DNA from: Minisyncoccia bacterium
GTDB lineage: Bacteria > Patescibacteriota > Minisyncoccia > 2-02-FULL-40-12 > IGHO2-01-FULL-4-A
Length of the DNA stretch: 64,000 nucleotides
Direction: 5' to 3'
NCBI GenBank assembly: GCA_050015375.1
Contig: JBEKBN010000006.1
Span: 454 to 64,453, forward strand
The position numbers and the translations under genes are program-made. Shown here one piece after another: positions 12,312 through 60,049 of the stretch (the first letter of the stretch is position 1; each line of letters begins with the position of its first letter). The notes below the pieces were generated by a model. The model searched no databases, was not told where the DNA came from, and worked only from the letters and a program-made list of their open reading frames with translations.

Positions 12312-12875
12312 ATGTCTTGGCAAATCTGTAAGCCGAATTCTGTTCCCCCACTTTTTGAGTTGCCCCAAAAGTGGGGGAGGCGATCATTTATCTGGTCCCT
12401 CGGTTACCCTCGGGATCTAGCGTCTCTTCCCCCACTTTTTAAGTTGCCCTAAAAGTGGGGGACACGGACTTGCACCGGGCAGGGTTTAGCGCGCATCCAT
12501 GTCGCCATGGAGCGGTCCCGTTCGGGGCCTTTTCACCCGTGATCCGCTTGCGCGGACTCGGAATAGTTTCTGTGCCACTTTCCCTGAATTTTGATAAATA
12601 ACTTTTGTCTTAAGAACAAAAACTATCCATCTTATATTCGGTGGCCATTAGCCACTGCCCTGCTTACGCAATCACCAACTGCTAATCTCTAATCTCAAAT
12701 AAAACCATTGGCGATCTTAGTTAACAATTAATGATTGCGTAAGCGGTGTTCGGACTTTCCTCCCTAAAACATTTTGCTTTCGCAAAATGTTCGGGCGATC
12801 AATTCGCAAAGCGAATTGATTTAGCCCCAAATCCAATAAGAATTCGTAGAGTAATCACCCGATTTACCAGGACTT
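12312..12875 (-). ncRNA. rnpB: RNase P RNA (bacterial type A-like) with an extended helix and twin hairpin insertions
   Basis: Reverse complement carries GGGAGGAAAGUCCGAAC (P4 5'), CAGGGCAG, AGUGGCACAGAAAC, CGCGCAAGCGGAUCACGGGUGAAAAGG, CUAAACCCUGCCCGGUGCAAG and ACAGAAUUCGGCUUACAG (J/P4 3'). These align with E. coli M1 RNA. The 5' and 3' ends are approximate. Confidence 0.8.
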
Positions 12876-17579: not shown

Positions 17580-19174
17580 CAGTCGGTTATTATTTTGTCG
17601 CCTTCCCGAACACCGCTAAGGATCTCCACTTTGCCATCGGAACCGTAAAGGCCGGTCTGGATCTGGACTTGAGTTGAGTGGACGCCGTCCGCCGAAAGCA
17701 ATTGGACATATTTATTCCCATTTTCACGGATGATCGTTCTTTGGGGCAAAAACAAAACATTTTGGCGGTTGTCGTTCGAGATATCAAGATTGGCGGTCAT
17801 GCCGGGTTTGATCCGGTCGTCGTTTTGGCTGAGAGTGAAAATAGTTTTGTATGTCGGCACGCCCTCGATAACCGATTCTGAAGGATAGATCTGAGAAACG
17901 ACAGCGTTCCAAGTCACATCCGGACCGTAGGCGTCGAGGGTAACCGTTGCCGGGTCGCCGACTTTGATCTTTGAAACATCAGCTTCTGGAACATTGGATT
18001 CGATCTGGTATTTGTTCATGCCGATGACAGAAACAACCGTGGCCTCGGGAGCAACAATCTCGCCGACCTGGAGATCGAAAGTAGCAATAGTGCCGGCAAT
18101 GGGCGAGCGCAAAGTATTCTTGTCGAGCTGGCTTTGGATCTGAGCCTGACTGGCTTGGGCCTGTGTCAAAGCCGCTTTGGCAATGTCGATGTCATATTGG
18201 GTCGGCGGAGCGATCTTCAAAGCCAGTTGCGACTCCAAGCTGGCGACATTATTTTGAGCGGTGATGATGGCTTGGCCTTGATCGGTAACAGCGGTGATTT
18301 GGGCTAGGACACCGGCTTTGGCCGAAACAATGACCGCTTTGTCAGCATCGGTTGCCGTGATGCCGTTTAAGCCAGTGTAGATATCATCGAGCGCGGTTTG
18401 GGTCAGGACCAAAACATTTTTTACATCCTTGATAAGCTGATTGCCATCCACCAGTGACGGATTAGTTTCATAACCGGAAATTTCAGCCACTAGCCCGCTT
18501 TGCAATACCAAGAATGCCGATGAGTTGTAGTTTCCCAAATTAGGTTTGTCATAAATAGCGAACAGAGCGTCGGCTTTATCGCCAATGATCTTTTGAAATT
18601 GGTCAAAATCAATGTTGGGATATTTTTGGGCGGAGTCGGAAACGGAAACCATTGCATTTATTGCCGTGTTCAAAGCTGTTTTTGCCACTGCCAGCGAGTC
18701 CTTGGTCAAGGTGTCGTTAAGAATGTTTTTAGCGCTGTCCAAACTTGTCTGCAAAACACTGACATCTTCCGGCCGCGGACCCTGGAGAAGCTGATCGTAT
18801 TTGGCCTGTGCCGACTGGACATTGGCCGTGGCGCCAAGAAGCTGGGCTTCCAGGTCGGACGAATCCAATTTGGCGAGAACTTGGCCGGCAGTGACTTTGT
18901 CGCCGACGGCGCCGGAGATGCTGACGACCTTTCCGCTGTGGTCGAACGACAAATTGACCTGGTCATTGGCGGAAATTTGGCCGGTCTCAGAAATAACCTG
19001 CTCAATATTTCCCTTTTGAACAGCGACGGTTTTCAGCGTTGACGGTTTAGCCCGGAACAAAAAAGCTCCGCCGGCCAAGACCAAAACGATAATTCCCGCC
19101 CAAACATATGTCCGGGGGCGTTTGAAAAAGGTCGGCTTCATAATCGGTTGATTTTCATCCATAATGTTATCCAT
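17579..19174 (-). CDS. HlyD-family periplasmic adaptor subunit (MacA-like)
   Basis: N-terminal TM, a long coiled-coil, and beta-barrel/MP domains. I placed the start at MDNIMDENQ (19174) rather than the track's 19207, which reads into the IR element. Confidence 0.75.
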   Translation of the reverse strand: MDNIMDENQPIMKPTFFKRPRTYVWAGIIVLVLAGGAFLFRAKPSTLKTVAVQKGNIEQVISETGQISANDQVNLSFDHSGKVVSISGAVGDKVTAGQVLAKLDSSDLEAQLLGATANVQSAQAKYDQLLQGPRPEDVSVLQTSLDSAKNILNDTLTKDSLAVAKTALNTAINAMVSVSDSAQKYPNIDFDQFQKIIGDKADALFAIYDKPNLGNYNSSAFLVLQSGLVAEISGYETNPSLVDGNQLIKDVKNVLVLTQTALDDIYTGLNGITATDADKAVIVSAKAGVLAQITAVTDQGQAIITAQNNVASLESQLALKIAPPTQYDIDIAKAALTQAQASQAQIQSQLDKNTLRSPIAGTIATFDLQVGEIVAPEATVVSVIGMNKYQIESNVPEADVSKIKVGDPATVTLDAYGPDVTWNAVVSQIYPSESVIEGVPTYKTIFTLSQNDDRIKPGMTANLDISNDNRQNVLFLPQRTIIRENGNKYVQLLSADGVHSTQVQIQTGLYGSDGKVEILSGVREGDKIITD

Positions 19175-19286
19175 CCCGTTAGAAGTCACTGTTGCACAGT
19201 TAATCACATAAGTTATAAAACCTGCTACAGAATGACTTTATAATTGATTCCAATTCGCGAACCCGTTAGGGTGACTTCTAACGGGA
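19174..19286. repeat. 113-bp inverted-repeat element (TCCCGTTAGAAGTCAC ... GTGACTTCTAACGGGA) abutting the macA start codon; copy A of three
   Basis: 16-bp perfect terminal IRs. The element ends exactly at the ATG of the downstream minus-strand gene. Related copies are at 52085-52197 and 58608-58685. Confidence 0.75.
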
Positions 19287-19334
19287 TCCATGATTTTGTC
19301 GTAATTCAGTAATTTTATTATAAATTATAAGAAA

Positions 19335-19891: not shown

Positions 19892-20983
19892 GTGAAAATC
19901 GCATTGGTTCAGGACTATCTTGTCGAATACGGCGGGGCCGAGAGGGTTCTTCAGGCGCTTTGCGAAATTTTTCCGGAGGCGCCGATCTACACTTTACTTT
20001 ATGATGAGAAAGCCAGCGGCCGGGTTTTTCGCGACCGCGAGATCCACACCTCCTTTATCCAAAAGATTCCTTTCGCCCGGCGACACCACCGATTATTCGC
20101 GGCTTTGATGCCTTTGGCCATCGAACAATTCGATCTGTCGGAATTTGATTTTGTTTTATCGAACTCGGCTTCCTTCGGCAAGGGCGTCATCACCAAACCC
20201 AAAACCACCCACATCAACTACTGCATGACCCCGACAAGATTTCTTTGGGACGACAGTCATCGTTTTATTGATGAGTTCAAATTGCCTTGGCTGATCAGAA
20301 AAATGACACCAGCCGTCATCGCTTATCTTCGGATCTGGGACAAAGAGGCCGCCTTGCGGGTGGACGAATTCGTCGCTATTTCCAACCATGTAAAAACCCG
20401 GATCGCCAAATATTATCAGCGCGACGCGAAAGTCATCACTCCGCCGATAGATGTCAGCAAATATCATATAAGCCCCGAAGTTGACGAATATTTTTTAATG
20501 GTCGGCCGCTTAGTTGCCTACAAACGCTTTGACCTGGCGATCCAGGTTTTCAACGCCATCGGCAAACCATTGAAGATCGTCGGCGATGGGCCGGAGCGAT
20601 ATCGGCTTGAAAAAATGGCCAAAAAAAATATCGAATTTCTCGGTCTTGTCTCCGATGATAAATTGCCCGGACTCTACAGCCGCGCTCAAGCGGTGATTTT
20701 CCCCCAGGAAGAGGATTTCGGTTTGGTGCCGCTGGAAGCGATGGCTTCGGGCCGGCCGGTCATCGCGTATCGCGCCGGCGGGGCGCTGGAAACGGTCATT
20801 GATGGCCGGACTGGAATATTTTTTGACGAGCAAACGGAAATCTCGATGGCTTTGGCCATCAGCAGATATTACGAAACCAAATTCAATCCCAACGTTATCC
20901 GGGCCCACGCTTTGGATTTCGACAAATCCATCTTCAAGGAGAAAATTCTCAAATTGCTTGCCCCCACACTCAATCGCGATTGA
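19892..20983 (+). CDS. family 4 (group 1) glycosyltransferase
   Basis: GTG start. GT-B fold with C-terminal motif FPQEEDFGLVPLEAMASGRPVIAYRAGG. The stop codon is supplied by a palindromic element. Confidence 0.85.
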   Translation: MKIALVQDYLVEYGGAERVLQALCEIFPEAPIYTLLYDEKASGRVFRDREIHTSFIQKIPFARRHHRLFAALMPLAIEQFDLSEFDFVLSNSASFGKGVITKPKTTHINYCMTPTRFLWDDSHRFIDEFKLPWLIRKMTPAVIAYLRIWDKEAALRVDEFVAISNHVKTRIAKYYQRDAKVITPPIDVSKYHISPEVDEYFLMVGRLVAYKRFDLAIQVFNAIGKPLKIVGDGPERYRLEKMAKKNIEFLGLVSDDKLPGLYSRAQAVIFPQEEDFGLVPLEAMASGRPVIAYRAGGALETVIDGRTGIFFDEQTEISMALAISRYYETKFNPNVIRAHALDFDKSIFKEKILKLLAPTLNRD

Positions 20984-20992
20984 GTGTGGGGG
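20961..20992. repeat. palindromic element CCCCCACACTCA-ATCGCGAT-TGAGTGTGGGGG (copy 1 of 5) at the GT4 gene 3' end
   Basis: Perfect 12-bp arms. The TGA of the right arm serves as the gene's stop codon. Family copies are at 25056, 55616, 58240 and 60021. Confidence 0.75.
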
Positions 20993-23630: not shown

Positions 23631-25460
23631 ATGCAAAACATCCGCAATTTTTGTATAATTGCTCACATAGACCATGGCAAAAGCACCTTAGCCGACCGGC
23701 TTTTAGAATTGACGGGCACAATTGAAAAGCGCAAAATGCACGAACAATTTCTGGACCAGATGGAATTGGAGCGTGAAAGAGGGATTACCATAAAACTCCA
23801 ACCCGTCCGCATGCAATACGGCGAATATATTTTGAATTTAATAGATACGCCGGGCCATGTGGATTTCACCTACGAAGTTTCTCGTTCGCTGGCGGCGGTG
23901 GAGGGTGCGATTTTACTTGTGGATGCCGCCAAAGGCGTTCAAGCCCAGACACTGGCCAATTTGCATTTGGCGCAAAGACAGAATTTGGTCATTATTCCGG
24001 TCATCAACAAAATTGATCTACCCAATGCCAGAGTGGCCGAAGCCGAAGAAGAAATTTCCAATTTGCTTGCCGTTGAACCGGACGAAATTATCAAGATTTC
24101 CGCCAAGACCGGTGAAGGCGTGGAGAAAGTTCTTGAAGCGGTTGTCGAAAAAATTCCCCCGCCATCTACTCACTACTCACTACCAACTACCAACTATCCT
24201 CGCGCCCTGATTTTTGATTCCGCTTTTGACGCTTACAAAGGCGTTGTCGCTTATGTCAGGATTTTTGACGGCAACTTCCGGGCCGGAGACAAAATTAAAC
24301 TTTTCGCTTCCAAAGCCGAAGCCGAGATAATCGAAGTTGGTCAGTTTAAACCCGCCTTGAGCAAAACCGATTCTATCGGCGAAGGTGAGATCGGCTATAT
24401 CGCCACCGGTTTGAAAAATCCCGGCGATGTCCGCGTTGGTGATACGGTTTTCTCTACAAACTATAAACCACAAACTACAAACTTTTCACCCCTTCCCGGC
24501 TACAAAGAACCGATGCCGGTGGTTTTCGCCAGTTTTTTTCCGGAAAAAGGGGAAGATTATGATCTGCTGAAAGACGCGCTGGGAAAACTGAAATTGACCG
24601 ATGCCTCGCTGACTTATGAACCGGAATCTTCACCAGCCCTCGGCCGGGGTTTTCGCCTTGGCTTTCTGGGTATGCTCCACACCGAGATCATCAGTGAGCG
24701 GTTGCGCCGGGAATTCAAATTGTCGCTGATAATTTCCTCGCCGTCGGTGGAATATCACATTTTGAAAAAGAACGGCCAAGAAATTCCCATCCGTTCGGCA
24801 TCAGAGATGCCCAATCCGAGTTATATTGATAAAATTTTCGAACCGACGGTTGTGCTGGAATTGTTGAGCCCATCTGAATATCTCGGTTCATTGATGAAAC
24901 TTCTTTCCGAAATGCGAAGCTCTTATCTAGCCACTGATTATTTGACCAAGGAAATCGTGATTTTAAAATACAAAGTCCCGCTGACTGAAATTGTGACCGA
25001 TTTTTATGACAAACTGAAAAGCGTCAGTTCCGGTTACGCTTCGATGAGTTATTCACCCCCACACTCATTAGATGAGTGTGGGGGCAAGCAGGATGGCTAT
25101 GAGGAATCTGATCTGGTTCGGCTGGATATTTTGGTGGCCGGGGATTTGGTTGAACCGTTTTCGAGAATGGTTCCGAGATCGCGCGTTCATGACGAAGGCA
25201 AGAGAATTGTCGAGAAGTTGAAGAAAATAATTCCGCGGCAATGGTTCGCGGTGGCGATCCAAGCGGCCATCGGCGGGAAAATAATCGCTCGGGAAACCAT
25301 CAGCGCTTTGCGAAAAGATGTTACCGGTTATCTCTACGGCGGGGATATTACCCGCAAGAAAAAATTATTGGAGAAGCAAAAGAGGGGGAAGGCGAGGATG
25401 AAAGAGGAAGGCAAGGTGAATATTCCGCAGAATGTGTTTCTGGAGATGCTGAAAAAGTAG
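23631..25460 (+). CDS. lepA: elongation factor 4 (LepA)
   Basis: IRNFCIIAHIDHGKSTLADRLL...DTPGHVDF and a C-terminus matching E. coli LepA. Contains three in-frame repeat insertions. Confidence 0.92.
   Translation: MQNIRNFCIIAHIDHGKSTLADRLLELTGTIEKRKMHEQFLDQMELERERGITIKLQPVRMQYGEYILNLIDTPGHVDFTYEVSRSLAAVEGAILLVDAAKGVQAQTLANLHLAQRQNLVIIPVINKIDLPNARVAEAEEEISNLLAVEPDEIIKISAKTGEGVEKVLEAVVEKIPPPSTHYSLPTTNYPRALIFDSAFDAYKGVVAYVRIFDGNFRAGDKIKLFASKAEAEIIEVGQFKPALSKTDSIGEGEIGYIATGLKNPGDVRVGDTVFSTNYKPQTTNFSPLPGYKEPMPVVFASFFPEKGEDYDLLKDALGKLKLTDASLTYEPESSPALGRGFRLGFLGMLHTEIISERLRREFKLSLIISSPSVEYHILKKNGQEIPIRSASEMPNPSYIDKIFEPTVVLELLSPSEYLGSLMKLLSEMRSSYLATDYLTKEIVILKYKVPLTEIVTDFYDKLKSVSSGYASMSYSPPHSLDECGGKQDGYEESDLVRLDILVAGDLVEPFSRMVPRSRVHDEGKRIVEKLKKIIPRQWFAVAIQAAIGGKIIARETISALRKDVTGYLYGGDITRKKKLLEKQKRGKARMKEEGKVNIPQNVFLEMLKK
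24166..24200. repeat. heptamer tract (CTACTCA x2, CTACCAA x2, CTATCCT) in frame inside lepA, encoding STHYSLPTTNYP
   Basis: Five 7-nt units with a CTA anchor. Absent from E. coli LepA at the equivalent PAPQGDPDAPLQ position. Confidence 0.65.
24454..24488. repeat. heptamer tract (CTACAAA/CTATAAA/CCACAAA/CTACAAA) in frame inside lepA, encoding TNYKPQTTNF
   Basis: Same unit as the tpiA tract. About 7 extra residues relative to E. coli LepA. Confidence 0.65.
25056..25084. repeat. palindromic element CCCCCACACTCA-TTAGA-TGAGTGTGGGGG (copy 2) inserted in frame in lepA, encoding SPPHSLDECGG
   Basis: Perfect 12-bp arms with a 5-nt loop. Adds about 11 residues relative to E. coli LepA between GYAS and SDLV. 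Confidence 0.75.
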
Positions 25461-31473: not shown

Positions 31474-31517
31474 ATAACATGTAGATATTGACCATATGGT
31501 CAATATCTACATGTTAT
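31474..31517. promoter_or_regulatory. 44-bp perfect palindrome (ATAACATGTAGATATTGACCAT|ATGGTCAATATCTACATGTTAT), putative operator
   Basis: Perfect dyad 30 bp upstream of the PaaX-like gene, in a divergent region shared with arsR. A near-copy is at 32111-32138. Confidence 0.6.
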
Positions 31518-31546
31518 TGTTTTATAGTTTCTGTTATTATGTATTC

Positions 31547-32113
31547 ATGAAGGCGATAAGAAGAGGAACCCTAGCTTTTAAAATTTTAAAAGGCATTGGT
31601 CTAACGGGTTTGTTTTTAATAAGCATGTCGAACCCGCGTTTTGGGGTTCAGTTATTGACGGGATTTAAAGAATATAACAAAAGGGAGAAACAAAAATTCA
31701 GAGAATCGTTATATTATTTGAAAAAAAGAGGATTGGTAAAAATCATAGAAAACAGTAGCGGCGGCTTTACGGCCAAATTGTCAAAGACCGGAGAAAAAAT
31801 GTTGGAATCTATCGACATTGATTGTCTTGAATTGAAAAATAAGGAATTTGATGGAAAATGGCGCGTGGTTATCTTTGATGTTCCGGTCAGATTGAATATT
31901 AAAAGACACGCTTTTACGGAACGACTGAAAACTCTGGGTTTTATCATGGTTCAAAGAAGTGTATGGATTTGTCCGTTTAGGTGCAGAAAAGAACTGGCGA
32001 TGTTAACCCAATTTTACGAAATTGAGAAATACGTCACATATTTAGAAACATCTTTTGTGGATAACGAAGAAGCGTGGAAAAAAGAGTTTTCACTAATCAA
32101 ACTGGTGGCTTAG
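31547..32113 (+). CDS. PaaX-like regulator: N-terminal winged helix plus a C-terminal Cas2-fold domain
   Basis: SLYYLKKRGLVKIIE (wHTH), then GKWRVVIFDVPVRLNIKRHAFTERLKTLGFIMVQRSVWICPF, which resembles the Cas2/PaaX_C motif (YDV..KRR...L...G.R.Q.SV). Confidence 0.5.
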   Translation: MKAIRRGTLAFKILKGIGLTGLFLISMSNPRFGVQLLTGFKEYNKREKQKFRESLYYLKKRGLVKIIENSSGGFTAKLSKTGEKMLESIDIDCLELKNKEFDGKWRVVIFDVPVRLNIKRHAFTERLKTLGFIMVQRSVWICPFRCRKELAMLTQFYEIEKYVTYLETSFVDNEEAWKKEFSLIKLVA

Positions 32114-32138
32114 ATATTCACCATATGGTCAATATCTA
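32111..32138. promoter_or_regulatory. imperfect 28-bp palindrome (TAGATATTCACCAT|ATGGTCAATATCTA), second copy of the operator-like dyad
   Basis: One central mismatch relative to the 31474 dyad. Overlaps the stop codon of the PaaX-like gene. Confidence 0.5.
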
Positions 32139-33666: not shown

Positions 33667-34536
33667 ATGAAAATAATTTTCAGGATTCTTTATTATTTGT
33701 TTTTCACGGCGGTTATTGTCGTTGTTTTGGCGTTGCTGGTGTCATTATTTCCGATTTTCGGGGGATTGAAGTTTTTCATTGTTCGATCGGGCTCGATGGC
33801 ACCGGCGATCAAAACCGGAAGCGTAGTGATGGTCAAACCCGAAGCCGATTACAAAATCGGGGATATAATATCGTTCAGTTTGGATGAAAAAAATGAAATA
33901 CCCACGACTCACCGCATCAAGGAAATAAAAATCAAAAACGGAATTCAGAAATTTATCACTCAAGGCGACGCCAACAACGCGCCGGACATGGTTGAAATTG
34001 AAAAAGAAAATATTATCGGCAAAGTGATTCTGACCGTTCCTTTAGCCGGATATTTGGTTGCAGTCGCTCAAAAACCGAGCGGTTATCTGGCGCTGATATT
34101 GATTCCGGCGTTCGTGATAATCGGCGACGAAATCTCGAAGATCATCAGGGAAACGAGAAAAAAACGTCAAGAGAAAAGCCAATCAAGCAACAAATCAATC
34201 CCATTCTATATTTTTTGTTTGGGTCTGGGACTTGCCGAGCTTTTACTCCCATCAATTCGCGCAAATTCGTTTTTCACGGCGACTGAAACCGGTGGGTTGA
34301 TGATAGTTGCCGGTTCGTGGTCACACGCCAAGACATCGGGCATCGCTATCGTGGCTCAAGAACCGACTTCTGATTCCGAGATTGACGTTCAAATCGCGAG
34401 TGGCGCTTCGGGAATCGAGTCAAATAAGGATGAACTAGCCCCAGAGCCGGCGGCGCCTCCGGCGCCGCCGGCCCCCGAAATCCCGCCGGCCGAAACCACC
34501 GTGGCGAGTCCTTCCGCCGAAATCATTCATGATTAA
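33667..34536 (+). CDS. sipW: signal peptidase I, SipW/archaeal type (S26B), with a Pro/Ala-rich C-terminal extension
   Basis: FIVRSGSMAPAIKTGSVVMV (SGSMxP), catalytic His in PTTHRI, and a second TM. The C-terminus is PEPAAPPAPPAPEIPPAE. Confidence 0.8.
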   Translation: MKIIFRILYYLFFTAVIVVVLALLVSLFPIFGGLKFFIVRSGSMAPAIKTGSVVMVKPEADYKIGDIISFSLDEKNEIPTTHRIKEIKIKNGIQKFITQGDANNAPDMVEIEKENIIGKVILTVPLAGYLVAVAQKPSGYLALILIPAFVIIGDEISKIIRETRKKRQEKSQSSNKSIPFYIFCLGLGLAELLLPSIRANSFFTATETGGLMIVAGSWSHAKTSGIAIVAQEPTSDSEIDVQIASGASGIESNKDELAPEPAAPPAPPAPEIPPAETTVASPSAEIIHD

Positions 34537-35410
34537 AACAAAAGTAAAACCAATTTTGACGGCAATTATTCTGTTTTTCGTTTTTTCGACCATTTTTTTG
34601 TCCGTCGTCAGTGTTCAAGCCGCCGATTTTCAGGTTACCTTCCAAAATCATCCGCTTTTCAAAAACGCCAATTTCATTCCCGGCGATTCGATCACTCGTT
34701 GGATCAAGGTCGTCAACAACAGCGGCCAAAATCAAACCGTCTTGATAAAAAGCGACAATGCCAGCGACCCCAATCACATGGACGGCGCAATGAATCTGAC
34801 CATCAAACAAGGGACCGCCACGCTTTATCAGAATTCTTTCGCTGATTTTTTGAGCGGGGACTTGATCGCTCTTTCTGAACTTGATAGCGGAAAAAGCGCT
34901 CAATATAATCTGACGGTTACATTCGATTTGTCCGCTGATGATCTTTATCAAAACAAGACGCTTGGTTTTAATATTCTTGTCGGTTTTGAACCGACCGGCT
35001 ACGAACAAAGCGATACCGGCACAACTTTTCTAACTGACAATCCCGATAATAAAGTCGAGGTTGTAACAATGACGCCGACGCCTTCGATAATTTCGTCGTC
35101 GCCGACGCCGACTCCGTCGGCGTCGGCGACCCCATCTCCCCGGCTAAAACCCAGCGTGAGTCCAATTTTACTTCGATCATCGCCAGCGCCCGTAATCGTT
35201 CACAATATTTCTTCCGCTACCACGTTATCCGCCAATTCACTTGCAACCCCGAACCTCCCGCCGTCTCTGACGACCGCCAATCCCGTCCGCCAACCCCAAC
35301 TCGCCCTCATTCTCGGCGTTTCCCCGACCCGCTGGCTGATCTATATTTTCATTTCCCTATTTGTCGGTATCGTTTCTTATGTAATTTCAAAAAAGTGGTT
35401 TAAAAATTAA
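34529..35410 (+). CDS. secreted surface protein with a Pro/Thr/Ser linker and a C-terminal TM anchor
   Basis: Signal peptide, a beta-rich domain, a PTPS-rich linker and the C-terminal anchor IYIFISLFVGIVSYVISKKWFKN. The anchor-coding segment is duplicated at 36193-36262. Confidence 0.5.
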   Translation: MIKTKVKPILTAIILFFVFSTIFLSVVSVQAADFQVTFQNHPLFKNANFIPGDSITRWIKVVNNSGQNQTVLIKSDNASDPNHMDGAMNLTIKQGTATLYQNSFADFLSGDLIALSELDSGKSAQYNLTVTFDLSADDLYQNKTLGFNILVGFEPTGYEQSDTGTTFLTDNPDNKVEVVTMTPTPSIISSSPTPTPSASATPSPRLKPSVSPILLRSSPAPVIVHNISSATTLSANSLATPNLPPSLTTANPVRQPQLALILGVSPTRWLIYIFISLFVGIVSYVISKKWFKN

Positions 35411-36412: not shown

Positions 36413-39400
36413 TTGTTTATGAAAATAAACAAACTTGGGGGGGGGCTTAAGTGGTCGATTTTCGCAACTCTTTTAGCAACCGCTCTAGTAGGCGGATTTT
36501 TTGTACACAATGCCAAGGCGACTGTTAGCACCTGTTCTGATATCACCCTTGGTGTGACTCAAATCACTGCTATCCAAACCTATGCCACCGCTGACAATAC
36601 TTTTGCCGACGGCTGGAAATGGGTTTTCAATGTTACCGTTCCGACTTGCCAAACACTTCTTCAAATGAGATTCGGTGACTGGGTTGGAACCGCTGGCACC
36701 ATTCCAGCCGCGACAAATATTCAATTTTATTCTAATCAATCTACAAATGCAGCCGATGAGGCGCACGCAATAATTATCAGTGCCGCTAATACATATAGTG
36801 GTTTGATGATCCTTTCTGGTGCTGATCTTGATGGGTCAACACCCGGCACCCAGATCCAAATAACAGTTGAAGCGAGAGTTCCAATTGATTCAGCTGGTGG
36901 TTCTTACTCGACAAGTTATGGCATACAATCGAATCCTGCACCGACCGTTCTATTCGTTCTCCCTATCGGTAACATCAATGTTGCTAATGGCACCGCTCTT
37001 GATGCTGTAGGTTTGCCGGCTAATGCTACCGTAGGTTTGAGCAACGGAAACACTCAATTAATGGCAGTCGTTTGGGATGGTGGTACGCCAACTTATGACG
37101 GCACAACAGCTGGCACCTATGCTTTTACAGGTGCATTGACTTTACCTGCTGGTGTTACTAATCCGGACGGCAAAACAGCCAACGTAAACGTAATTGTGGA
37201 ACCAATACCTACCCACACCATTACCTCCTCTGTTGTAGGCGCATCTGTCTTTGGTCCGAAACACGGCACGATTTCTCCTCTCGGTGCAACGACCGTGAAT
37301 GATGGCGACAGCCAGACCTACACGATTACGCCCGATACCGGCTACCAGATTCTTGAGCTTAAAGTGGACGGTGTTTCCACAACGCCGGCCGACAGTTATA
37401 CTTTCACCAATGTCACAACTGACCATACCATTGCCGTGAGCTTTGCCCCGATTACTTATACCTTAACCTATTCCGCCGGAGCCCATGGTTCCATTGTTGG
37501 AACTTCGCCCCAGGCAGTAAATTACGGCGCTGATGGAACAGCCGTGACTGCGACGCCAGCCGAGGGTTATCATTTCGTAGGTTGGAGCGATCAGTCAACA
37601 ACTAATCCGAGAACCGACAACGATGTAACCGGCAATATTGATGTCACTGCCAGTTTTGCAGTTAACCAATATACAATTACTTTTGGTTCAAATGGTGGCT
37701 CAGCCGTAGCTTCCATAACTCAGGATTATGGCTCACCGGTTACTCCACCAGACGATCCAACTCGAGCAGGTTATACCTTCGCCGGTTGGGTTCCAACAGT
37801 TCCGGCAACGATGCCATTAGGCGGAGCGAGTTTAGTTGCCCAGTGGACTGCTGTTGTTGCACCAATCACCCACACTCAAAAGGATCTGACGACTTGGGTT
37901 CCGATTCAGGGTGGAATAACTGCCGATGTAACAATTTCAACAGTAAATAATAAATTCCACGCAGACGGAGTTCCAACTGGATATACTTTGGTGTATTACC
38001 CTAATGTTGGAACTTATGATACCTACACTGGAGAAGTTTATCCTGTAGAGGGCACTAATATGGATCTTCCAATGTCAGATGATTTGAATCGCGGTAAAGA
38101 AGATTACTGCAATAATGGATTTAATCCACACGCAATTCACTGTGATGGCGCTAAGTTGTGGCTTGTTCCAACCGAAGACATATCAACAACAATTAATTCT
38201 GATGGAAGCCAGACATTGGTTGGAGATTGGAATACGATCGCTCCGAATATTTTGTTCGAGACAAATCTGATAACTTATCAAGCAACTCCGATCACTCACA
38301 CCCAAAAGGATCTGAACACCTGGGCTCCACTTCCAAATGGAATAACTGCCGATGTTACATATGACCTGACCGGAGATACTTTCCAAGCGACCGGAGTTCC
38401 ACCTGGATATACTTTGGTGTATTATCCTAAACCCGCAACTTGGACCGGATTGGTCTATTCCGTCATTGGTAATAGCATGACCCTTCCAATGCCAGGTGAT
38501 TTGAATGGTAGTCCATCATCAGATTACTGTACCGTTAGAAATAGTGAGGGGAATTTGGAAAATCCGCATGAAATAATTTGCCAAGGAGCCGCGTTGTGGC
38601 TTGTTCCAACGGGTGAATTAACAGATAACCACGATGGGACTTATACAATTAATTGGGGCACTGCTTCTGATATTTTGTTCGAGACAGACCTGATAAATTA
38701 CACAGCTCCGACTTCTACCCCAAGCGCTAATCTTATTCTCACCGCTCCAGATGCCACAACTATTAATCAATCTGCTTTAGTTCCTGAAACGAGCAACGGA
38801 ATACCCACTGGCGGAAACTCAACAGTTGATACTGCCATCAATGGCCTTAGCCCGATTGCGGTGAGGTTGCAGAATACCGGCGATGCCGCTTCTGCTAATG
38901 TTCGCATCAGCCCGATTGGCGACGCTTCTGGGCACATTCAGTTATGGGCAAAAGATACTTTAGGTAATTGGTATGACATCAATGTTACTGGCTGGGGGCC
39001 AGCCGAAGGTTTTCCAGTGCCAGCCCCATACGATGCCACTACTAATGTCTATGCGATTTCCGACGAAGTAGGATCTTATGACATGATAGCTAATTTGATT
39101 TTGGTAAGTAATTCATCACTCGTTGCGCACACAAAGGGAATAATTACCGTTGCCCCTGCCCCGACCCTTTTGTTTGATACCGGCATCACTGATGGTTCCA
39201 CTATCTTACCGGGTACACTTGCAACTCAGTTCACGATTACAACTACGGGTGTCCCGGGTACGATGCACACGCTTGGGTTAACGGGCACCACAGCAACTCC
39301 AGCTCTTGCAGATGGCAATTATGACTTTAAGCTTGTGGCAACCTCAGACGTGCAAGCCGCTTTGACTTCTTATTTTGGAGCTAAGGCAGGATGGACTTCG

Positions 39401-50730: not shown

Positions 50731-51534
50731 TTATCGCCTCCGCCACAGACGCCCGCGCATCCGCATGTGATCCGCTGCGCCGGCTTCTTCATCGCGGATG
50801 CCATGACCCGTCAGATCAATGAAAGCGTCTTCGAGCAAGGTCTTTCCGGTCTTGGCTTTCAGTTCCTCGGCCGTTCCCTGGGCGACTATTTTTCCGTTAT
50901 CAATGACAGCCATGAGTGTCGCGTTACGGTCTGCCTCTTCCATGTAATGGGTTGTGAAAAAAACCGTCACGCCTTCTTCCTTGTTCAGATCCTTGATATA
51001 GGTCCAGATGTGATTGCGGGTTTGAGGGTCAAGGCCCTGGGTCGGCTCGTCCAAGAACAGGACTTTCGGATGATGCAAAAGCGCCCGGCCGATCTCAAGC
51101 CGGCGTTTCATGCCGCCAGAATATTTTTTGACCTGGTCGTTCCTTCTTTCCCAAAGTTCCAGCAATTTCAATAGCTGTTCAATGCGCGTTCTGCGGGTGG
51201 CTCTGGGAATGCCGTATAAAACTCCGTGAAGGTCCATATTCTCCCTTGCCGTGAGCTCGTCATCCAAACTTTGGTCTTGAAAACAGATACCAAAAGAATT
51301 TCTGACATCATTTTGCTGGCTGACCGGATCTTTGCCGTTGATGCGGATATAACCCGAAGTCGGGTGGAGAAGTGTCGTTAACATCTTGATGGTCGTGGTC
51401 TTGCCGGCGCCGTTGGGACCCAAAAAAGCAAAAACCTCGCCGTGTTTGACGTTGAACGTAATGTTATTAACGGCGGTGAAATCCTTGAATTTCTTGGTTA
51501 GATTTTTGACTTCAATGATCTGTTCGATTTCCAT
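50731..51534 (-). CDS. ABC transporter ATP-binding protein (DrrA-like)
   Basis: Walker A GPNGAGKTTTIKML, signature YSGGMKRRLEIGRAL, Walker B LFLDEPTQGLD. Confidence 0.88.
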   Translation of the reverse strand: MEIEQIIEVKNLTKKFKDFTAVNNITFNVKHGEVFAFLGPNGAGKTTTIKMLTTLLHPTSGYIRINGKDPVSQQNDVRNSFGICFQDQSLDDELTARENMDLHGVLYGIPRATRRTRIEQLLKLLELWERRNDQVKKYSGGMKRRLEIGRALLHHPKVLFLDEPTQGLDPQTRNHIWTYIKDLNKEEGVTVFFTTHYMEEADRNATLMAVIDNGKIVAQGTAEELKAKTGKTLLEDAFIDLTGHGIRDEEAGAADHMRMRGRLWRRR

Positions 51535-51569: not shown

Positions 51570-52085
51570 TTAAGAATCCTTCGAGATCAAGCTGGCCGTG
51601 AAATATCCGACGATGATCCCGATAAGCGCGCCGCCGAGAATATCAGAAGGATAATGGACGCCGGCCATGACTCTGGCGACGCCCATCACGATACTGCCAA
51701 CAAAGAACGCCGTTCCCCAGCGTTTGTTGTAATAAAATATTATCATTGAAAGCGCGAAGAAGAAACTGGCGTGGCCGGAGGGAAAAGAATTGCCGCTCTC
51801 GGAGACGAGCTGGTGAACCTGATAAATAGCGAATGGCCGGGGATGATGGTAAAAATATCGGATGACCGTGGTCAAAATCCCGCGGGAAATGAAAACCGAA
51901 ATAATTCCGGCCCAAAAAACTTTCCAGCGAGTCGCCAAGAAAGGTTTCAACCATAAAAAGACCAAAAATAAAATTCCCAAAAGATACGCCCAGTAGATGG
52001 CGAAAAAAACCGTGAGCCAACTCAAAAAACCCGGCGAGCCGACGAGATCGTTCAAAGCAAAAAATATTTTTGTATCCAGATTCAT
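51570..52085 (-). CDS. PAP2-family phosphatase (undecaprenyl-diphosphatase-like)
   Basis: PAP2 motifs PSGHASFFFAL and GVHYPSDILGGALIG. I placed the start at MNLDTKIFF (52085), not the track's 52118, which reads into the IR element. Confidence 0.75.
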   Translation of the reverse strand: MNLDTKIFFALNDLVGSPGFLSWLTVFFAIYWAYLLGILFLVFLWLKPFLATRWKVFWAGIISVFISRGILTTVIRYFYHHPRPFAIYQVHQLVSESGNSFPSGHASFFFALSMIIFYYNKRWGTAFFVGSIVMGVARVMAGVHYPSDILGGALIGIIVGYFTASLISKDS

Positions 52086-52197
52086 CCCGTTAGAAGTCAC
52101 TGTTTCACAGCTAATCACCTAATTTATACAACTAACGACAGCTGACTTAATTAAAGTATCTATGGTTGCAAACCCGCTAGGGTGACTTCTAACGGGA
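52085..52197. repeat. 113-bp inverted-repeat element, copy B (TCCCGTTAGAAGTCAC ... GTGACTTCTAACGGGA), abutting the PAP2 start codon
   Basis: Same length and terminal 16-bp IRs as copy A. About 40 bp at each end are conserved and the centre is divergent. Confidence 0.75.
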
Positions 52198-52207
52198 TTC
52201 ATTTTAT

Positions 52208-55256: not shown

Positions 55257-56543
55257 ATGACCGTTTCTGATATAATTAAACAAATGGAGGAAAAAGAAAA
55301 TGAATTGAAATTCCCCAACGGGTTTTTGTGGGGGACGGCCACGTCAAGCTATCAGATAGAAGGTGGAATAAATAATTGCGACTGGGCCCAAGCGAATCGC
55401 GGTCCCTCGACAAGTTCAGGACATCAGATTCCTGATGCTGGGCGCGCTTGCGATAGTTACAATAAATACGAGGAGGATTTTGATATTGCCAAATCGCTTG
55501 GCCAGAACGCCCACCGTTTCTCTATAGAATGGGCGCGGATCGAGCCGGAAGAGGGAAAATTCGACGAGAAAGAAATCGAGCATTATAAAAAAGTGCTGGA
55601 CGCCTTGCGAACTCGCCCCCACACTCAAGATTTGAGTGTGGGGGGAACGGGATTGGAACCATTCGTGACCCTTTGGCATTTCACGCTTCCGGTTTGGTTC
55701 GCGAAAATGGGCGGTTTCGAAAATCCGAAATCACCGGAAATATTTTCCCGATATTGCGAATTTGTCGTTGGCAAAATGGGGGATAGAGTTCACCCTGTTA
55801 AATCCGGCGAAGCCGGTGCCGCGGAGCGGCAATTTAACAGGGTAAAATTCTGGGTAACTATAAACGAACCGATGGTTTATGCCTCGAATGGTTACCGAAA
55901 AGGTCAATGGCCGCCGTTTGAAAAAAATATTTTCAGGTTCATGAAGGTTATCAAAAATCTAATCATGTCGCACAATCTAGCATATGACAAAATCAAGAAC
56001 ATTGATCCTTCGGCTCAGATCGGCATCGCTAAAAATAATATAAATTTTGAGGCAAATTGGAACCCAATCAATCGCCTCTTGTCAAGCTTTCTGAATTTTT
56101 TCTGGAATCGCAGATTTTTGAATAAAATTTCACAGGATTTCATCGGTTTGAATTATTATTTCCACAAAAAGTTCGGGGATAGGGCGAAGTATCCGAAATC
56201 CGACATGGGTTGGGATATTTATCCGAAAGGAATTTATAATTTGCTGATGGAACTGAAAAAATATGGTAAACCGGTTTACATCACCGAAAACGGATTGGCG
56301 GACAAAGAAGACAAACAACGCGCCGATTTCATCCGTGAACATTTGAAATGGGTTTCGAGAGCGATCCGGGATGGCTCTGACTGCCGCGGATATTTTTATT
56401 GGTCGCTTCTGGATAATTTTGAGTGGGCGGAGGGTTACAAACAAAAATTCGGTTTGGTGGAAATTAATTTTGAAACAATGGAAAGAAAGATCAGGAATTC
56501 AGCGTGGGAATTTGCAAAAATTTGTAAAAATAACGAAATATGA
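55257..56543 (+). CDS. glycoside hydrolase family 1 (beta-glucosidase-like) carrying two in-frame palindromic insertions
   Basis: FLWGTATSSYQIEGG, TINEP (acid/base) and ITENGLA (nucleophile). Carries insertions RTRPHTQDLSVGG and HPVKSGEAGAAERQFNRV relative to canonical GH1. Confidence 0.88.
   Translation: MTVSDIIKQMEEKENELKFPNGFLWGTATSSYQIEGGINNCDWAQANRGPSTSSGHQIPDAGRACDSYNKYEEDFDIAKSLGQNAHRFSIEWARIEPEEGKFDEKEIEHYKKVLDALRTRPHTQDLSVGGTGLEPFVTLWHFTLPVWFAKMGGFENPKSPEIFSRYCEFVVGKMGDRVHPVKSGEAGAAERQFNRVKFWVTINEPMVYASNGYRKGQWPPFEKNIFRFMKVIKNLIMSHNLAYDKIKNIDPSAQIGIAKNNINFEANWNPINRLLSSFLNFFWNRRFLNKISQDFIGLNYYFHKKFGDRAKYPKSDMGWDIYPKGIYNLLMELKKYGKPVYITENGLADKEDKQRADFIREHLKWVSRAIRDGSDCRGYFYWSLLDNFEWAEGYKQKFGLVEINFETMERKIRNSAWEFAKICKNNEI
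55616..55644. repeat. palindromic element CCCCCACACTCA-AGATT-TGAGTGTGGGGG (copy 3), in frame in GH1
   Basis: Perfect 12-bp arms. Encodes RPHTQDLSVGG, inserted before the conserved GxEPFVTLxHxxLP block. Confidence 0.75.
55793..55842. repeat. second, distinct GC-rich palindromic insertion (CCCTGTTAAAT-28 nt-ATTTAACAGGG), in frame in GH1
   Basis: 11-bp perfect arms. The loop itself holds two hairpins (CCGGC-GAA-GCCGG and GCCGC-GGA-GCGGC). Encodes about 16 extra residues between GDRV and KFWVTINEP. Confidence 0.65.
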
Positions 56544-57427
56544 TCTGGATCCTTCTGGCAATTCTGTCCCAATTCATCTCCGCCGGCGTTTACATGGCCG
56601 ACAAGTATCTTGTTGGACCCAAAGCCATCGGCCGGCCGGTGGTTTACGCCATCTATGTCTGCTTGCTTTCGGGTTTCGTTTTGGTTTTATTGCCTTTTGG
56701 CGTGGTTTTGCCGCTGACCTGGCCGCTAATTGCGCTTTGTCTGGGGATCACGGTTGCTTTCACGACTTCCCTATTATTTCTTTATTCCGCTCTTAAAACT
56801 TCTGATGTTTCGGATGTGGCGCCGGTCATGGGCGCGATCTCGGCCGTGGCCACATTGGCTTTCGGACTGTATTTTTTGGATTCAATGCTGCCCAGATTAT
56901 TTTTCATCGGCTTTCCGCTTTTGATATTCGGGACTTTTCTGATGTCGCGTTTTCGGTTTAATAAGAAATCCTCCTTTTATGTTATCGCCGCCGGAATTCT
57001 TTTCGGACTTTCATCGATTTTAATAAAAATATTGTTCGGAGAAACCTCATTTCTTAACGCGTTTTTCTGGTCGCGGATGACGAATGTTTTCGGCGCGATA
57101 ATTTTACTTTTGTGGCCGGCGAATTTCAAAGCCGTGTTCAGCAATGTCAAAAGTTCGACCGGCGGAACGAAAATTTTGGTCGTCGGCAACAAAACGCTGG
57201 CCGGTATCGCCTATCTCTTATCGCTGGTGGCAATAAAACTCGGCAATGTTACCGTCGTCAACTCATTGGCCGGTTTTGAATTCGTTTTTATTTTGCTTCT
57301 GGCTTTTATTTTCACTTATAAATTTCCGAAATATTTTCAAGAGGCCGTTCACAACAAAAACGACCGGCTGAAAAAGATCTGGGCTTCGGGTTTGATAATA
57401 ATCGGGTTCGTGATCATGTTCCTATGA
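56540..57427 (+). CDS. hypothetical polytopic membrane protein (about 10 TM)
   Basis: 295 aa and strongly hydrophobic. No motif. Confidence 0.5.
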   Translation: MIWILLAILSQFISAGVYMADKYLVGPKAIGRPVVYAIYVCLLSGFVLVLLPFGVVLPLTWPLIALCLGITVAFTTSLLFLYSALKTSDVSDVAPVMGAISAVATLAFGLYFLDSMLPRLFFIGFPLLIFGTFLMSRFRFNKKSSFYVIAAGILFGLSSILIKILFGETSFLNAFFWSRMTNVFGAIILLLWPANFKAVFSNVKSSTGGTKILVVGNKTLAGIAYLLSLVAIKLGNVTVVNSLAGFEFVFILLLAFIFTYKFPKYFQEAVHNKNDRLKKIWASGLIIIGFVIMFL

Positions 57428-58509
57428 AGAAGCACAAAAAATATTTTTCAATTCCCATTATCCTTTTCTTGATCCTTTTGGTTTTAACCTTGGCTTGGAA
57501 TTTGCTTTCCATCAGGCCGGTTCCCGAAAAAGTAAATTACGGCGTTTCGTTCAGCGTTTTTCATTCCAACGAACTCAATCTGGATTGGAAAAAAACATAT
57601 TTGGCGATCTTAGACGATCTTAAGGTCAGGAACTTGCGGCTTACCGCTCATTGGCCGCTGACCGAGCCGGCCGACGGCAAATACGATTTCTCAGAATTGG
57701 ATTTTCAGATAAACGAAGCCGATAAACGCGGCGCGACCTATATTCTGGCCGTCGGCCGGCGCCTGCCCGGCTGGCCGGAATGCCATGTGCCGGATTGGGT
57801 TATGAATCAAGAATCACAAATCACGAATCAAGGTGAAAAAACTGATTTTGAGAACCAAAAGTTATTGGAATATATTCAGACGACCGTTGAGCGTTACAAA
57901 AATTCCCCCGGTCTGAAATATTGGCAAGTCGAGAATGAACCGTTCCTAGGATTTTTCGGCCGTTCGAGCTGCCAATTGACCGACGAGAATTTTTTCAAAC
58001 AGGAGATCGCTCTTGTCCATAAACTCGATCCGACCCATCCGGTTCTGGCGACCGACAGCGGCGAGTTCGGCTATTGGTATCAGGCCTACCGCGACGGTGA
58101 TGTTTTCGGCACCTCCTTGTATCTGTATGTTTGGTGGCGGGCGCTTGGCATCGGCCCCTTGCGTTATCCCATCGGGCCGTCGTTTTTCCGAGTGAAGCAA
58201 AATGTGGTTGATTTTATCGGTTGTGTCTTGGGCGATTCACCCTCACACTCAATTTTTGAGTGTGAGGGCAAGCCGACAATTCTCATTGAACTGGAAGCCG
58301 AGCCCTGGCTTTTAACACCGATCGTTGACGCGCCGATGGCGACTCTCCTTGACCGGATGGGGATTGATAAATTCGAAACCATGATCCAAACCGCCAAAGA
58401 AGCCGGTTTTGGCGACCAATATCTCTGGGGCGCCGAGTGGTGGTATTGGATGGAACAAAATGGCCATCCGGAATTTTGGCAGGCGGCGAAGCAACTTTTT
58501 AACCAATAA
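57424..58509 (+). CDS. glycoside hydrolase, clan GH-A (GH5/GH113-like)
   Basis: Signal/TM N-terminus, then YWQVENEPF (acid/base NEP) and LIELEAEPW (nucleophile Glu). The family is not resolved. Confidence 0.55.
   Translation: MKKHKKYFSIPIILFLILLVLTLAWNLLSIRPVPEKVNYGVSFSVFHSNELNLDWKKTYLAILDDLKVRNLRLTAHWPLTEPADGKYDFSELDFQINEADKRGATYILAVGRRLPGWPECHVPDWVMNQESQITNQGEKTDFENQKLLEYIQTTVERYKNSPGLKYWQVENEPFLGFFGRSSCQLTDENFFKQEIALVHKLDPTHPVLATDSGEFGYWYQAYRDGDVFGTSLYLYVWWRALGIGPLRYPIGPSFFRVKQNVVDFIGCVLGDSPSHSIFECEGKPTILIELEAEPWLLTPIVDAPMATLLDRMGIDKFETMIQTAKEAGFGDQYLWGAEWWYWMEQNGHPEFWQAAKQLFNQ
58240..58268. repeat. palindromic element variant CCCTCACACTCA-ATTTT-TGAGTGTGAGGG (copy 4), in frame in the GH-A hydrolase gene
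   Basis: Both arms carry a compensatory change (C to T paired with G to A), so pairing is preserved. Encodes SPSHSIFECEGKP. Confidence 0.75.
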
Positions 58510-60020: not shown

Positions 60021-60049
60021 CCCCCACACTCATGCATGAGAACGGGGGC
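60021..60049. repeat. degenerate intergenic copy (copy 5) of the CCCCCACACTCA palindromic element
   Basis: CCCCCACACTCATGCATGAGAACGGGGG has a left arm identical to the family and a decayed right arm. Confidence 0.5.

Follow-up and report, generated by a model that had tools for sequence, protein, structure and literature searches.

Introduction

The described systems closest to the element treated here are the prokaryotic miniature transposable elements with inverted repeats (MITEs), which are quoted as 50–800 bp long (PMC11602168), the REPINs, in which compensatory changes in the stem are common (PMC3116915), the palindromic elements of Rickettsia and the piggyBac/IS1380 transposons. In the piggyBac reaction, the 3'OH of the transposon attacks the far side of the 4-nt flank and forms a hairpin at the transposon end, which is then opened so that 4 nt of donor flank are kept on each 5' end (PMC5861402); this end hairpin is made of TTAA, the terminal inverted repeats (TIRs) begin with CCC, the target-site duplication (TSD) is 4 bp long, and the IS1380 elements are prokaryotic relatives (PMC5861402, PMC10813416, PMC8151067). 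Template switching between the arms of a palindrome is also known to produce matched changes and homogenised or extended arms, for which no selection is needed (PMC8794818, PMC8604942, PMC13100816). The present work concerns a family of short palindromes in a stretch of 64,000 nt from a Minisyncoccia bacterium (contig JBEKBN010000006.1, positions 454 to 64,453; "the window" below is this whole stretch) and, in particular, the copy at 58240–58268 within a hydrolase gene, designated copy D.

Bacteria of the Candidate Phyla Radiation (CPR) have tiny genomes and, to our knowledge, are not known for mobile repeats; in a literature search, no paper with this sequence and none tying MITEs to CPR/Patescibacteria was found. 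In a first-pass annotation, the T at position 4 of the left arm of copy D and the matching A of the right arm were read as a compensatory event at this locus and as evidence that the stem is under selection. The observation of the stem is confirmed below, while its interpretation is only partly supported. With a probability of about 0.7, copy D is an inserted miniature non-autonomous DNA transposon, the body of which consists of two 12-nt TIRs round a 4–5-nt centre, and its T/A pair at arm position 4 (T4/A) was inherited or templated rather than selected in situ.

Results

Copy D and its host gene

The features of the locus are the following.

57424–58509, + strand: open reading frame (ORF) that hosts copy D, encoding a (beta/alpha)8 glycoside-hydrolase (GH)-like protein
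58236–58239, + strand: TTCA, four non-host nucleotides brought in with copy D
58240–58268, no strand assigned: copy D, the T4/A variant of the palindrome family, inside the hydrolase ORF
58236–58268, or equivalently 58237–58269: inserted block of 33 nt, 11 codons, SPSHSIFECEG
58269–58272, + strand: CAAG, the host tetranucleotide by the insertion, single and unduplicated, holding the conserved Lys codon AAG

Copy D consists of CCCTCACACTCA (58240–58251), ATTTT (58252–58256) and TGAGTGTGAGGG (58257–58268), which together form a 29-nt palindrome with fully complementary 12-bp arms, exactly as first annotated; when the adjacent A-T pair is counted, ViennaRNA gives a 13-bp stem that leaves a loop of 3 nt. 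The folding energy of this hairpin is −22.4 kcal/mol for RNA (z = −7.9) and −14.7 kcal/mol for DNA, no shuffle being equally stable, and the 29-mer did not occur in any of 100 dinucleotide-preserving shuffles of the window. Arm position 4 is C, with G opposite, in the other window copies, so that copy D differs from them on both arms.

As far as the assemblies show, the T/A pair is no sequencing error, because the same DNA is present in a Logan assembly of SRR7028199, which matches the window without a difference over 9,176 bp including copy D, and in an ENA contig that differs from the window at 6 of 16,577 positions, none of them within a palindrome. An accident of assembly is thereby discounted for the pair. 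Both T4 and the A alter the encoded amino acid, and in those records the hydrolase protein shows 100% identity. Of the six positions at which the ENA contig differs, five fall in a 16-bp stretch of an ABC-transporter gene (51046–51061) and may represent a multinucleotide, possibly templated, strain variant.

The hydrolase has 361 aa against approximately 337 aa in its homologues. Its ORF gives weak Pfam matches to GH42 and GH10, with a GH5 mannanase as the top PDB match (E=1e-3), so the former label "GH5-like" is acceptable in the sense of "clan GH-A-like"; the NCBI name of the protein, which belongs to a metagenome-assembled genome (MAG) of "Minisyncoccia bacterium", is beta-galactosidase. 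The protein reads G-D-(SPSHSIFECEG)-K-P where the homologues have G-(D/K)-K-P, with K283 and P284 invariant, and the 11-codon insert was present in none of the 16 aligned homologues. In the AlphaFold model (pLDDT 79, pTM 0.81), the insert is a coil with pLDDT <50 between the predicted helix 252–267 and strand 285–291.

The palindrome family

Copy D belongs, as the first-pass annotation had it, to a palindromic-element family, and its two arm changes are complementary. Five copies with the consensus arm CCCCCACACTCA are present in the window, where 11 arm-like 12-mers (≤2 mismatches) were counted against 2.5 expected.

20961–20992: copy A, loop ATCGCGAT, a perfect palindrome of 32 nt where a glycosyltransferase family 4 (GT4) gene has its 3' end
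25056–25084: copy B, loop TTAGA, in lepA
55616–55644: copy C, loop AGATT, in a GH1 gene
58240–58268: copy D, loop ATTTT, in the hydrolase gene
60021–60048: copy E, canonical centre TGCA, intergenic, right arm decayed to TGAGAACGGGGG with 3 unpaired positions

Copy E, located 1.7 kb from copy D, folds at only −13.4 kcal/mol. The arm-like 12-mers at 37867 and 38293 were set aside as a repeat within a surface protein.

A metagenome scan gave 77 loci, mostly groundwater and sediment contigs (L numbers designate retrieved loci, including those of a genome scan). They were retrieved by a perfect-arm pattern, so arm conservation in that set is ascertained; the copies unbiased for arm changes are those of the window and the bystander copies, which are few in number. 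Since TGCA forms the centre of 45 of 85 copies, the canonical unit is taken as the perfect 28-bp palindrome CCCCCACACTCA-TGCA-TGAGTGTGGGGG, with the element termini CCCCCACAC...GTGTGGGGG; the loop has 4 nt in 63 copies, 5 nt in 19, 7 nt in 1 and 8 nt in 2. At least 73 non-redundant copies occur in groundwater and sediment CPR contigs, and when arm positions 3 and 4 were left unconstrained in a genome scan, MAGs of Saccharibacteria and Yanofskybacteria also proved to carry this stem. No Rfam family was matched at any copy and no T-run follows copies B–E; the terminator-type U-run or Rfam match expected of an intrinsic terminator or a known structured RNA was therefore not seen.

Two further leads were examined and rejected. 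In the Saccharibacteria loci L003 and L006, the palindrome borders a 748-bp repeat, the neighbours of which are SecY and ribosomal proteins, with no transposase. The Acidobacterial matches of the genome scan (L001 4423–4451, L002 7562–7590 and L005 6893–6921) are look-alike hairpins, CCGCCACACTCA-N5-TGAGTGTGGCGG, that have different arms and adjoin a tRNA gene; they are probably unrelated and terminator-like.

Insertion of the family into target sites

The palindromes are miniature mobile DNA, and their insertion is confirmed by empty alleles. Identical 4-nt direct repeats flank 46 of 109 copies; after the removal of orthologous duplicates (n=73), 30 copies had identical 4-bp repeats against 3.1 expected, a number that none of 10,000 flank permutations reached. 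Among these 30 duplications, TTTA was found 7 times, CTTG 6, TTGA 5, CTCG 3, and TTAA, TTCA and CTGG 2 each, in addition to others, i.e., at least 10 different sequences of the YTNR class. Such variable repeats are the pattern of target duplication at YTNR/YNNR sites and not of a fixed tag.

Three empty alleles were recognised. L069 reads ..CCCTCG-CTTG-CCTCC.., where L023, L044 and L051 are filled as CTTG-(28 bp)-CTTG; the paralogous site in L039 (2445–2529) reads G-CTCA-TCG, where L026 and L039 4452 are filled as TTCA-(28 bp)-TTCA; and L065 is empty at the site at which L035 (467) and L075 carry a T4-type copy between TATG and CATG. Moreover, longer MITEs of 63–175 nt share the termini of the palindrome (approximately 20-bp TIRs, CCCCCACACTCAGTTAGC..) and are flanked by 4-bp repeats of their own; a nested 28-bp copy with a TAAG duplication lies in one of them.

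The flanks of the window copies within genes are of another kind. No duplication flanks copies D and B (TTCA / CAAG) or copy C (CTCG / GAAC), and comparison with homologues showed that one flank of each is the host tetranucleotide, present singly, and the other consists of 4 foreign nt. The host CTCG left of copy C, present once, contains an Arg codon, and the host CAAG at copy D contains a Lys codon. At the LepA site of relatives, the flanks are TTCA / CGAG in L087 and CTCG / TAAA in L090, and the host tetranucleotide reads YTYR towards the element. Identical repeats were found at 19 of 31 copies with the canonical centre and at 2 of 16 copies in genes. A 2-bp (CA) duplication for the TTCA..CAAG copies and a 36-nt element with an outer TSD were both tried and rejected, as the insert is then not a multiple of three or the outer repeats are inconsistent.

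These flanks are an argument for an HUH/Y1 transposase in the style of IS200/IS605 or REP/REPIN-RAYT, which would move a single-stranded hairpin, insert it 3' of YTYR without duplication and carry one tetranucleotide along. The four resolved intragenic cases (B, C, D and L087) have the host tetranucleotide once plus 4 extra nt, as does L090 with a different palindrome; non-duplicated copies in which both flanks read inward YTYR are what alternating-strand insertion next to YTYR would give; and the size (a 20–40-nt palindrome) and the compensatory changes resemble REP/REPIN (PMC3733652, PMC3116915). Such a mechanism has to be taken seriously as a competitor but is unlikely, since it does not yield the perfect 4-bp repeats, of at least 10 sequences, that are seen at 41% of copies and borne out by empty sites; the flanks carry no fixed GTAG or CGTC tag, the window has no Y1 transposase, and REPs are extragenic.

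Origin of the matched arm change

The T4/A state of copy D was also found at the termini of L004 691–753, L035 467–496, L035 9163–9281 and L065 5675–5849, and the L035 467 copy is itself an insertion polymorphism, with L065 empty. Because further elements, from different genomes, thus have T4/A at their two termini, copy D most likely arrived with the pair and was probably inserted already as T4/A; the recurrence of this state among mobile copies speaks against the compensatory event at this locus that had been proposed. Other symmetric sub-families, for example ..ACCTA/TAGGT.., likewise recur at independent loci.

The symmetry of the family as a whole was evaluated in an alignment of the termini of copies outside the perfect-arm selection (window copies, extra copies in the flanks of the loci, and longer MITEs). 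Double-sided changes occurred at 6 of 12 positions and filled 19 cells against 3.8 ± 1.6, with none of 500 shuffles reaching the observed value, and slid registers gave almost no symmetric cells. At the same time, unpaired decay was about as frequent: after collapsing orthologues among the copies not selected by pattern, 7 loci had only compensated changes, 7 only unpaired ones and 1 both. An equal frequency of uncompensated changes, which the first-pass annotation had accepted as fatal to its reading, was thus nearly reached, and template switching can yield such pairs without selection; that the pair marks selection on the stem at this locus is not supported. A single matched pair in a palindromic repeat is no proof of stem selection if the arms are transposon ends or copy each other; arm symmetry can reflect one enzyme recognising both ends, or copying, and not necessarily the stability of a hairpin. 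As originally written, the finding is weak evidence for such selection.

Copying between arms has left a trace in the family. The alleles L023 10386–10413 (CTTG-P-CTTG, where P is the palindrome) and L066 2528–2555 (CAAG-P-CTTG; also L028 and L068) differ by a change of TT to AA in the left flank, through which the palindrome grows from 28 bp to a perfect 36 bp; this is the signature of a template-switch mutation. A neutral event of this quasipalindrome type at the hydrolase locus, in which the nascent strand folded back and copied a mutated arm, would make the pair of copy D a local one that is silent on selection. It is documented that perfect hairpins arise and are maintained by this mechanism, and that it homogenises or lengthens the arms of inverted repeats (PMC8794818, PMC8604942, PMC13100816, PMC7202029), and the L023 and L066/L028/L068 alleles are an instance of it; for copy D itself we consider it rather improbable, as it is unneeded if the copy was inserted as T4/A, a state that pre-exists as a sub-family, and on present data it is indistinguishable from inheritance.

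In-situ compensation, in which one arm mutated and a second change was fixed at the locus because a functional DNA or RNA stem is under selection, would agree with the difference of both arms from the window consensus at paired positions, with the strong over-representation of symmetric changes in the family, with the very stable hairpin of copy D, and with the perfect arms that copies A–C keep despite their differing centres and flanks. It is nevertheless an improbable explanation: the same T/A pair forms termini of mobile copies elsewhere, decay without compensation is about as common (copy E alone lost 3 pairs), and neither an Rfam match nor a T-run indicates a function. Besides, the copies lie in three unrelated genes and in two frames, the homologues do without the insert, and a stable hairpin within coding sequence is likelier to be a cost than an advantage.

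A host-functional site (the binding site of a dimeric protein, a dif-like 11-6-11 recombination site, or a transcription or RNA-stability signal) is very improbable, for although the 28-bp unit can be divided into 11-bp arms and a 6-bp centre (ATGCAT) like Xer/dif-type sites, with conserved arms, a variable centre and copy A at a gene end, the family shows insertion polymorphism with target duplication, nesting in MITEs, decay of copies and in-frame insertion into unrelated housekeeping genes, without a terminator T-run or an Rfam family, and is absent from the homologues of the genes that carry it.

Insertions within genes

In the lepA, GH1 and hydrolase genes of the window, each insert is a 29-nt palindrome plus 4 nt, i.e., 33 nt or 11 codons. 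In addition to the block described above for copy D, the following features were delimited.

25052–25084, + strand: copy B with TTCA, a 33-nt in-frame insert encoding SPPHSLDECGG, within the part of lepA for the linker that joins domain V to the C-terminal domain
55616–55648, + strand: copy C with 4 foreign nt (GAAC), a 33-nt in-frame insert encoding PHTQDLSVGGT in the GH1 beta-glucosidase gene
20961–20992, no strand assigned: copy A, which replaces the last GT4 codons and supplies the TGA stop (20981–20983)

The LepA insert lies between Pfam EFG_C (end at residue 476) and LepA_C (start at residue 503), corresponds to an 11-residue gap at SPPHSLDECGG(K) in the alignment with EF4 of T. thermophilus, and gives SY-(SPPHSLDECGG)-KQDGY where the closest relatives have SY-EQGD-Y or SY-EQAD-Y; none of 120 aligned homologues contains it. 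The GH1 insert, ALRTR-(PHTQDLSVGGT)-GLEP, was found in none of 119 homologues. The element has two stop-free frames, PPHS..ECGG and PHT..SVGG, and a third that meets a TGA in the right arm, which ends GT4 in copy A. Because the peptide changes with the frame, the conserved entity is the DNA.

Sixteen of the 73 non-redundant copies are within long ORFs. Among non-redundant loci, long read-through ORFs hold 10 of the 22 copies with 5-nt loops and 5 of the 46 with 4-nt loops (Fisher p=0.0034), and of the copies with the TGCA centre 1 of 31 is intragenic. A body of 28 nt with 4 nt of flank gives 32 nt and breaks the frame, so the gene copies that persist carry 5-nt centres (29+4 = 33 nt); since the intragenic copies obey this length constraint, the element is translated and not removed. 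In relatives, in-frame copies occur in KsgA-, Nfo (endonuclease IV)-, TypA-, Tgt-, FolD-, HolA- and HolB-like genes, these names being our reading of the translations and not tool calls.

Several observations adjoin these insertions. One HolA-like ORF (L059 11268–12563) contains three in-frame copies (SPHSKFECGG, LPPHSCMSVG and PTPMNGCGG), one of which is the symmetric arm variant CCCCCACACCCA / TGGGTGTGGGGG; its consideration as a copy orthologous to that of GH1 was abandoned, as the codon offsets (123 upstream, 298 downstream) match by coincidence and the ORF is HolA-like. The GH1 gene of the window has a second lineage-specific insert of approximately 15 aa at 55789–55846 (VHPVKSGEAGAAERQF), built on a different inverted repeat (TTCACCCTGTTAAAT / ATTTAACAGGGTAAA) and missing in 107 of 119 homologues, with a similar one in P0246 and P0261. 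The same linker site of LepA, after ASMSY, is occupied by different palindromes according to the CPR lineage (L087 4367–4432, L090 4007–4041, and L092): the insert of L087 is a 62-nt relative, that of L090 is a perfect palindrome of 35 nt without relationship to it (CCCTCCCAAATTTCGCC-A-GGCGAAATTTGGGAGGG), and that of L092 reads TCCGCC-GGCT-GGCGGA. Many LepA homologues of 587–653 aa carry other inserts at other sites.

Other palindromes and repeats in the window

The RNase P RNA gene (12313–12810, − strand; RF00010, 126 bits) is approximately 498 nt long against the 367-nt model and contains two near-identical 35-nt hairpins (12344–12378 and 12428–12462, TCCCCCACTTTT-11 nt-AAAAGTGGGGGA), the arms of which begin like those of the element (CCCCCAC); both hairpins may have been inserted into this structural RNA gene. 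GC-rich perfect hairpins at 34446–34472 and 35098–35130, with 12- and 15-bp stems and the loop TCC, lie in the ORFs 33667–34536 and 34529–35410 and may be further palindromic insertions in coding sequence. A 44-bp perfect palindrome (31474–31517) overlaps the start of a PaaX-like regulator gene (31496–32113), and a related 28-bp palindrome (32111–32138) is located at the end of this gene; both look like operator sites. A repeat of approximately 123 nt is present at 19169–19291 and 52080–52202, as well as in the unrelated metagenome locus L058 (3242–3364), with 79–86% identity.

Discussion

The element of the preferred reading, an inserted non-autonomous transposon, lands at YNNR/YTNR tetranucleotides, and its persisting gene copies, which use either stop-free frame, add 11 residues to a loop or linker. 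On this reading, mobilisation would be provided in trans, presumably by a DDE-type transposase making 4-bp staggered cuts in the target, and a piggyBac/IS1380-like excision would leave each 5' end with 4 nt of the donor flank. The donor tetranucleotide would then mismatch the relaxed target, and replication or repair could give either a perfect duplication or one donor-derived flank, with a gain of 4 nt either way. The T4/A pair of copy D would be an inherited sub-family state of both termini, and the symmetry of the family would persist because recognition must extend to both ends, with help from hairpin-templated (template-switch) copying between the arms, and not by selection on a stem in the hydrolase gene. 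A piggyBac/IS1380-like chemistry for this element, suggested by comparison of its ends and flanks, is possible, though we advance it tentatively.

Several points weigh against this reading. Neither a transposase nor a RAYT or recombinase was found in the window by Pfam and precomputed annotation of nearly all ORFs, and no autonomous element with matching termini was found in approximately 0.7 Mb of related loci, where a search of all loci for termini 0.04–4 kb apart with a TSD returned only MITEs of ≤175 nt; because neither a transposase nor an autonomous element was found, the enzyme class is unproven. Identical repeats are lacking at 43 of the 73 copies; among these, both flanks read inward YTYR in 14 loci and both YRAR in 0, a bias that the donor-flank model covers only by assuming that excision prefers YTYR flanks, and TTCA is paired with CAAG in seven independent loci, above the simple donor-plus-target expectation. 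The in-frame copy of L053 has a 28-nt body, so that the "29+4" rule is not universal, and a 28-bp body is below the 50–800 bp quoted for prokaryotic MITEs (PMC11602168). Finally, the arms of copies A–C are consensus-perfect while their centres differ fully from TGCA, which could reflect purifying selection that acts on the arms as sequence; for these copies the options are that transposability was selected, that the arms corrected themselves, or that distinct elements with 5-nt centres were their sources.

This lineage and its relatives carry a 28-bp element in frame in LepA, a GH1 glucosidase and a GH-A-like hydrolase, in addition to the genes of the relatives. If general, this would show concretely how some of the lineage-specific insertions of CPR proteins can come about, and it would add a second case to that of Rickettsia, in which selfish palindromes reshape the proteins of a reduced genome. 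Moreover, the flank pattern, with one tetranucleotide from elsewhere, could reveal transposition chemistry from sequence alone. It may even be, though we hold this wider proposal to be doubtful, that the 28-bp perfect palindrome is itself mobile, which would place it among the smallest transposable elements described, that it spreads in CPR/Patescibacteria by a piggyBac/IS1380-like reaction with a relaxed target, carrying 4 nt of its prior flank, and that its 33-nt versions, together with further small palindromes that use these sites, are a recurrent source of lineage-specific peptide insertions.

Comparison with known systems

With prokaryotic MITEs the family shares TIRs, target-site duplication, the lack of coding capacity, dispersed copies, sub-families, nesting, and length variants with common termini. 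The 12-nt perfect arms, and the approximately 20-bp repeats of the longer members (CCCCCACACTCAGTTAGC), are within the range of ≥10–15 bp expected of MITE TIRs; duplications and empty sites were found for the family (30/73), not for copy D itself (TTCA / CAAG). It differs in that the commonest unit has only 28 bp, two repeats and a 4-nt centre, and in that approximately 60% of copies have no clean duplication; a MITE of 50–800 bp with internal sequence is not what the common form of 28–32 nt represents, whereas the relatives of 63–175 nt fit.

The palindromic elements of Rickettsia (RPEs) are likewise palindromic selfish DNA inserted in frame in unrelated conserved genes of a reduced-genome bacterium, with the peptide at tolerated sites (PMC10969869, citing Ogata et al. 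2000). In-frame location in conserved genes holds here for LepA, GH1 and the hydrolase, with 11 codons each. In contrast, RPEs are approximately 100–150 bp long with a conserved peptide of 30–50 aa, while the insert considered here has 33 nt and 11 aa, is read in two frames and occurs in a CPR host; an element of approximately 100–150 bp with a family peptide and a Rickettsia host is thus not matched by 29 nt in Minisyncoccia.

REP/REPIN sequences are GC-rich hairpin palindromes of 20–40 nt with common compensatory stem changes (PMC3116915) and a tetranucleotide beside the hairpin (PMC3733652), all of which recall the present family. However, REPs have a fixed GTAG or CGTC tag, are extragenic and make no duplication, none of which applies here: the flanking tetranucleotides vary (YTNR class, at least 10 sequences), 16 of 73 copies are in long ORFs, and duplications are confirmed. 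REPs also lie near a RAYT gene; among the window ORFs, no Y1_Tnp match was obtained. The fixed target, absent duplication, distinct subterminal hairpins and TnpA-Y1 of IS200/IS605 are equally at variance with a symmetric single hairpin, a variable target and 41% duplications, and no TnpA was found in the window scans.

With piggyBac/IS1380 the family has in common a 4-bp duplication, which includes TTAA, TAAA, TCAA and TATG (also piggyBac variants), and ends that start with CCC (CCCTC or CCCCC), so that the combination of 4-bp duplication and CCC-starting TIRs (PMC10813416) is present; the strict TTAA target is not, TTAA accounting for 2 of 30 duplications at relaxed YTNR/YNNR sites. In the piggyBac reaction, the ends keep 4 nt of the donor flank when they are excised (PMC10813416, PMC5861402), and the likeness is one of how the element works, not of family membership. 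Each named family has a defining feature that the element lacks, or a transposase for which no candidate was found in the sequences covered; the element behaves like a MITE and like the RPEs of Rickettsia, resembling REP/REPIN in size and piggyBac/IS1380 in its ends and duplication.

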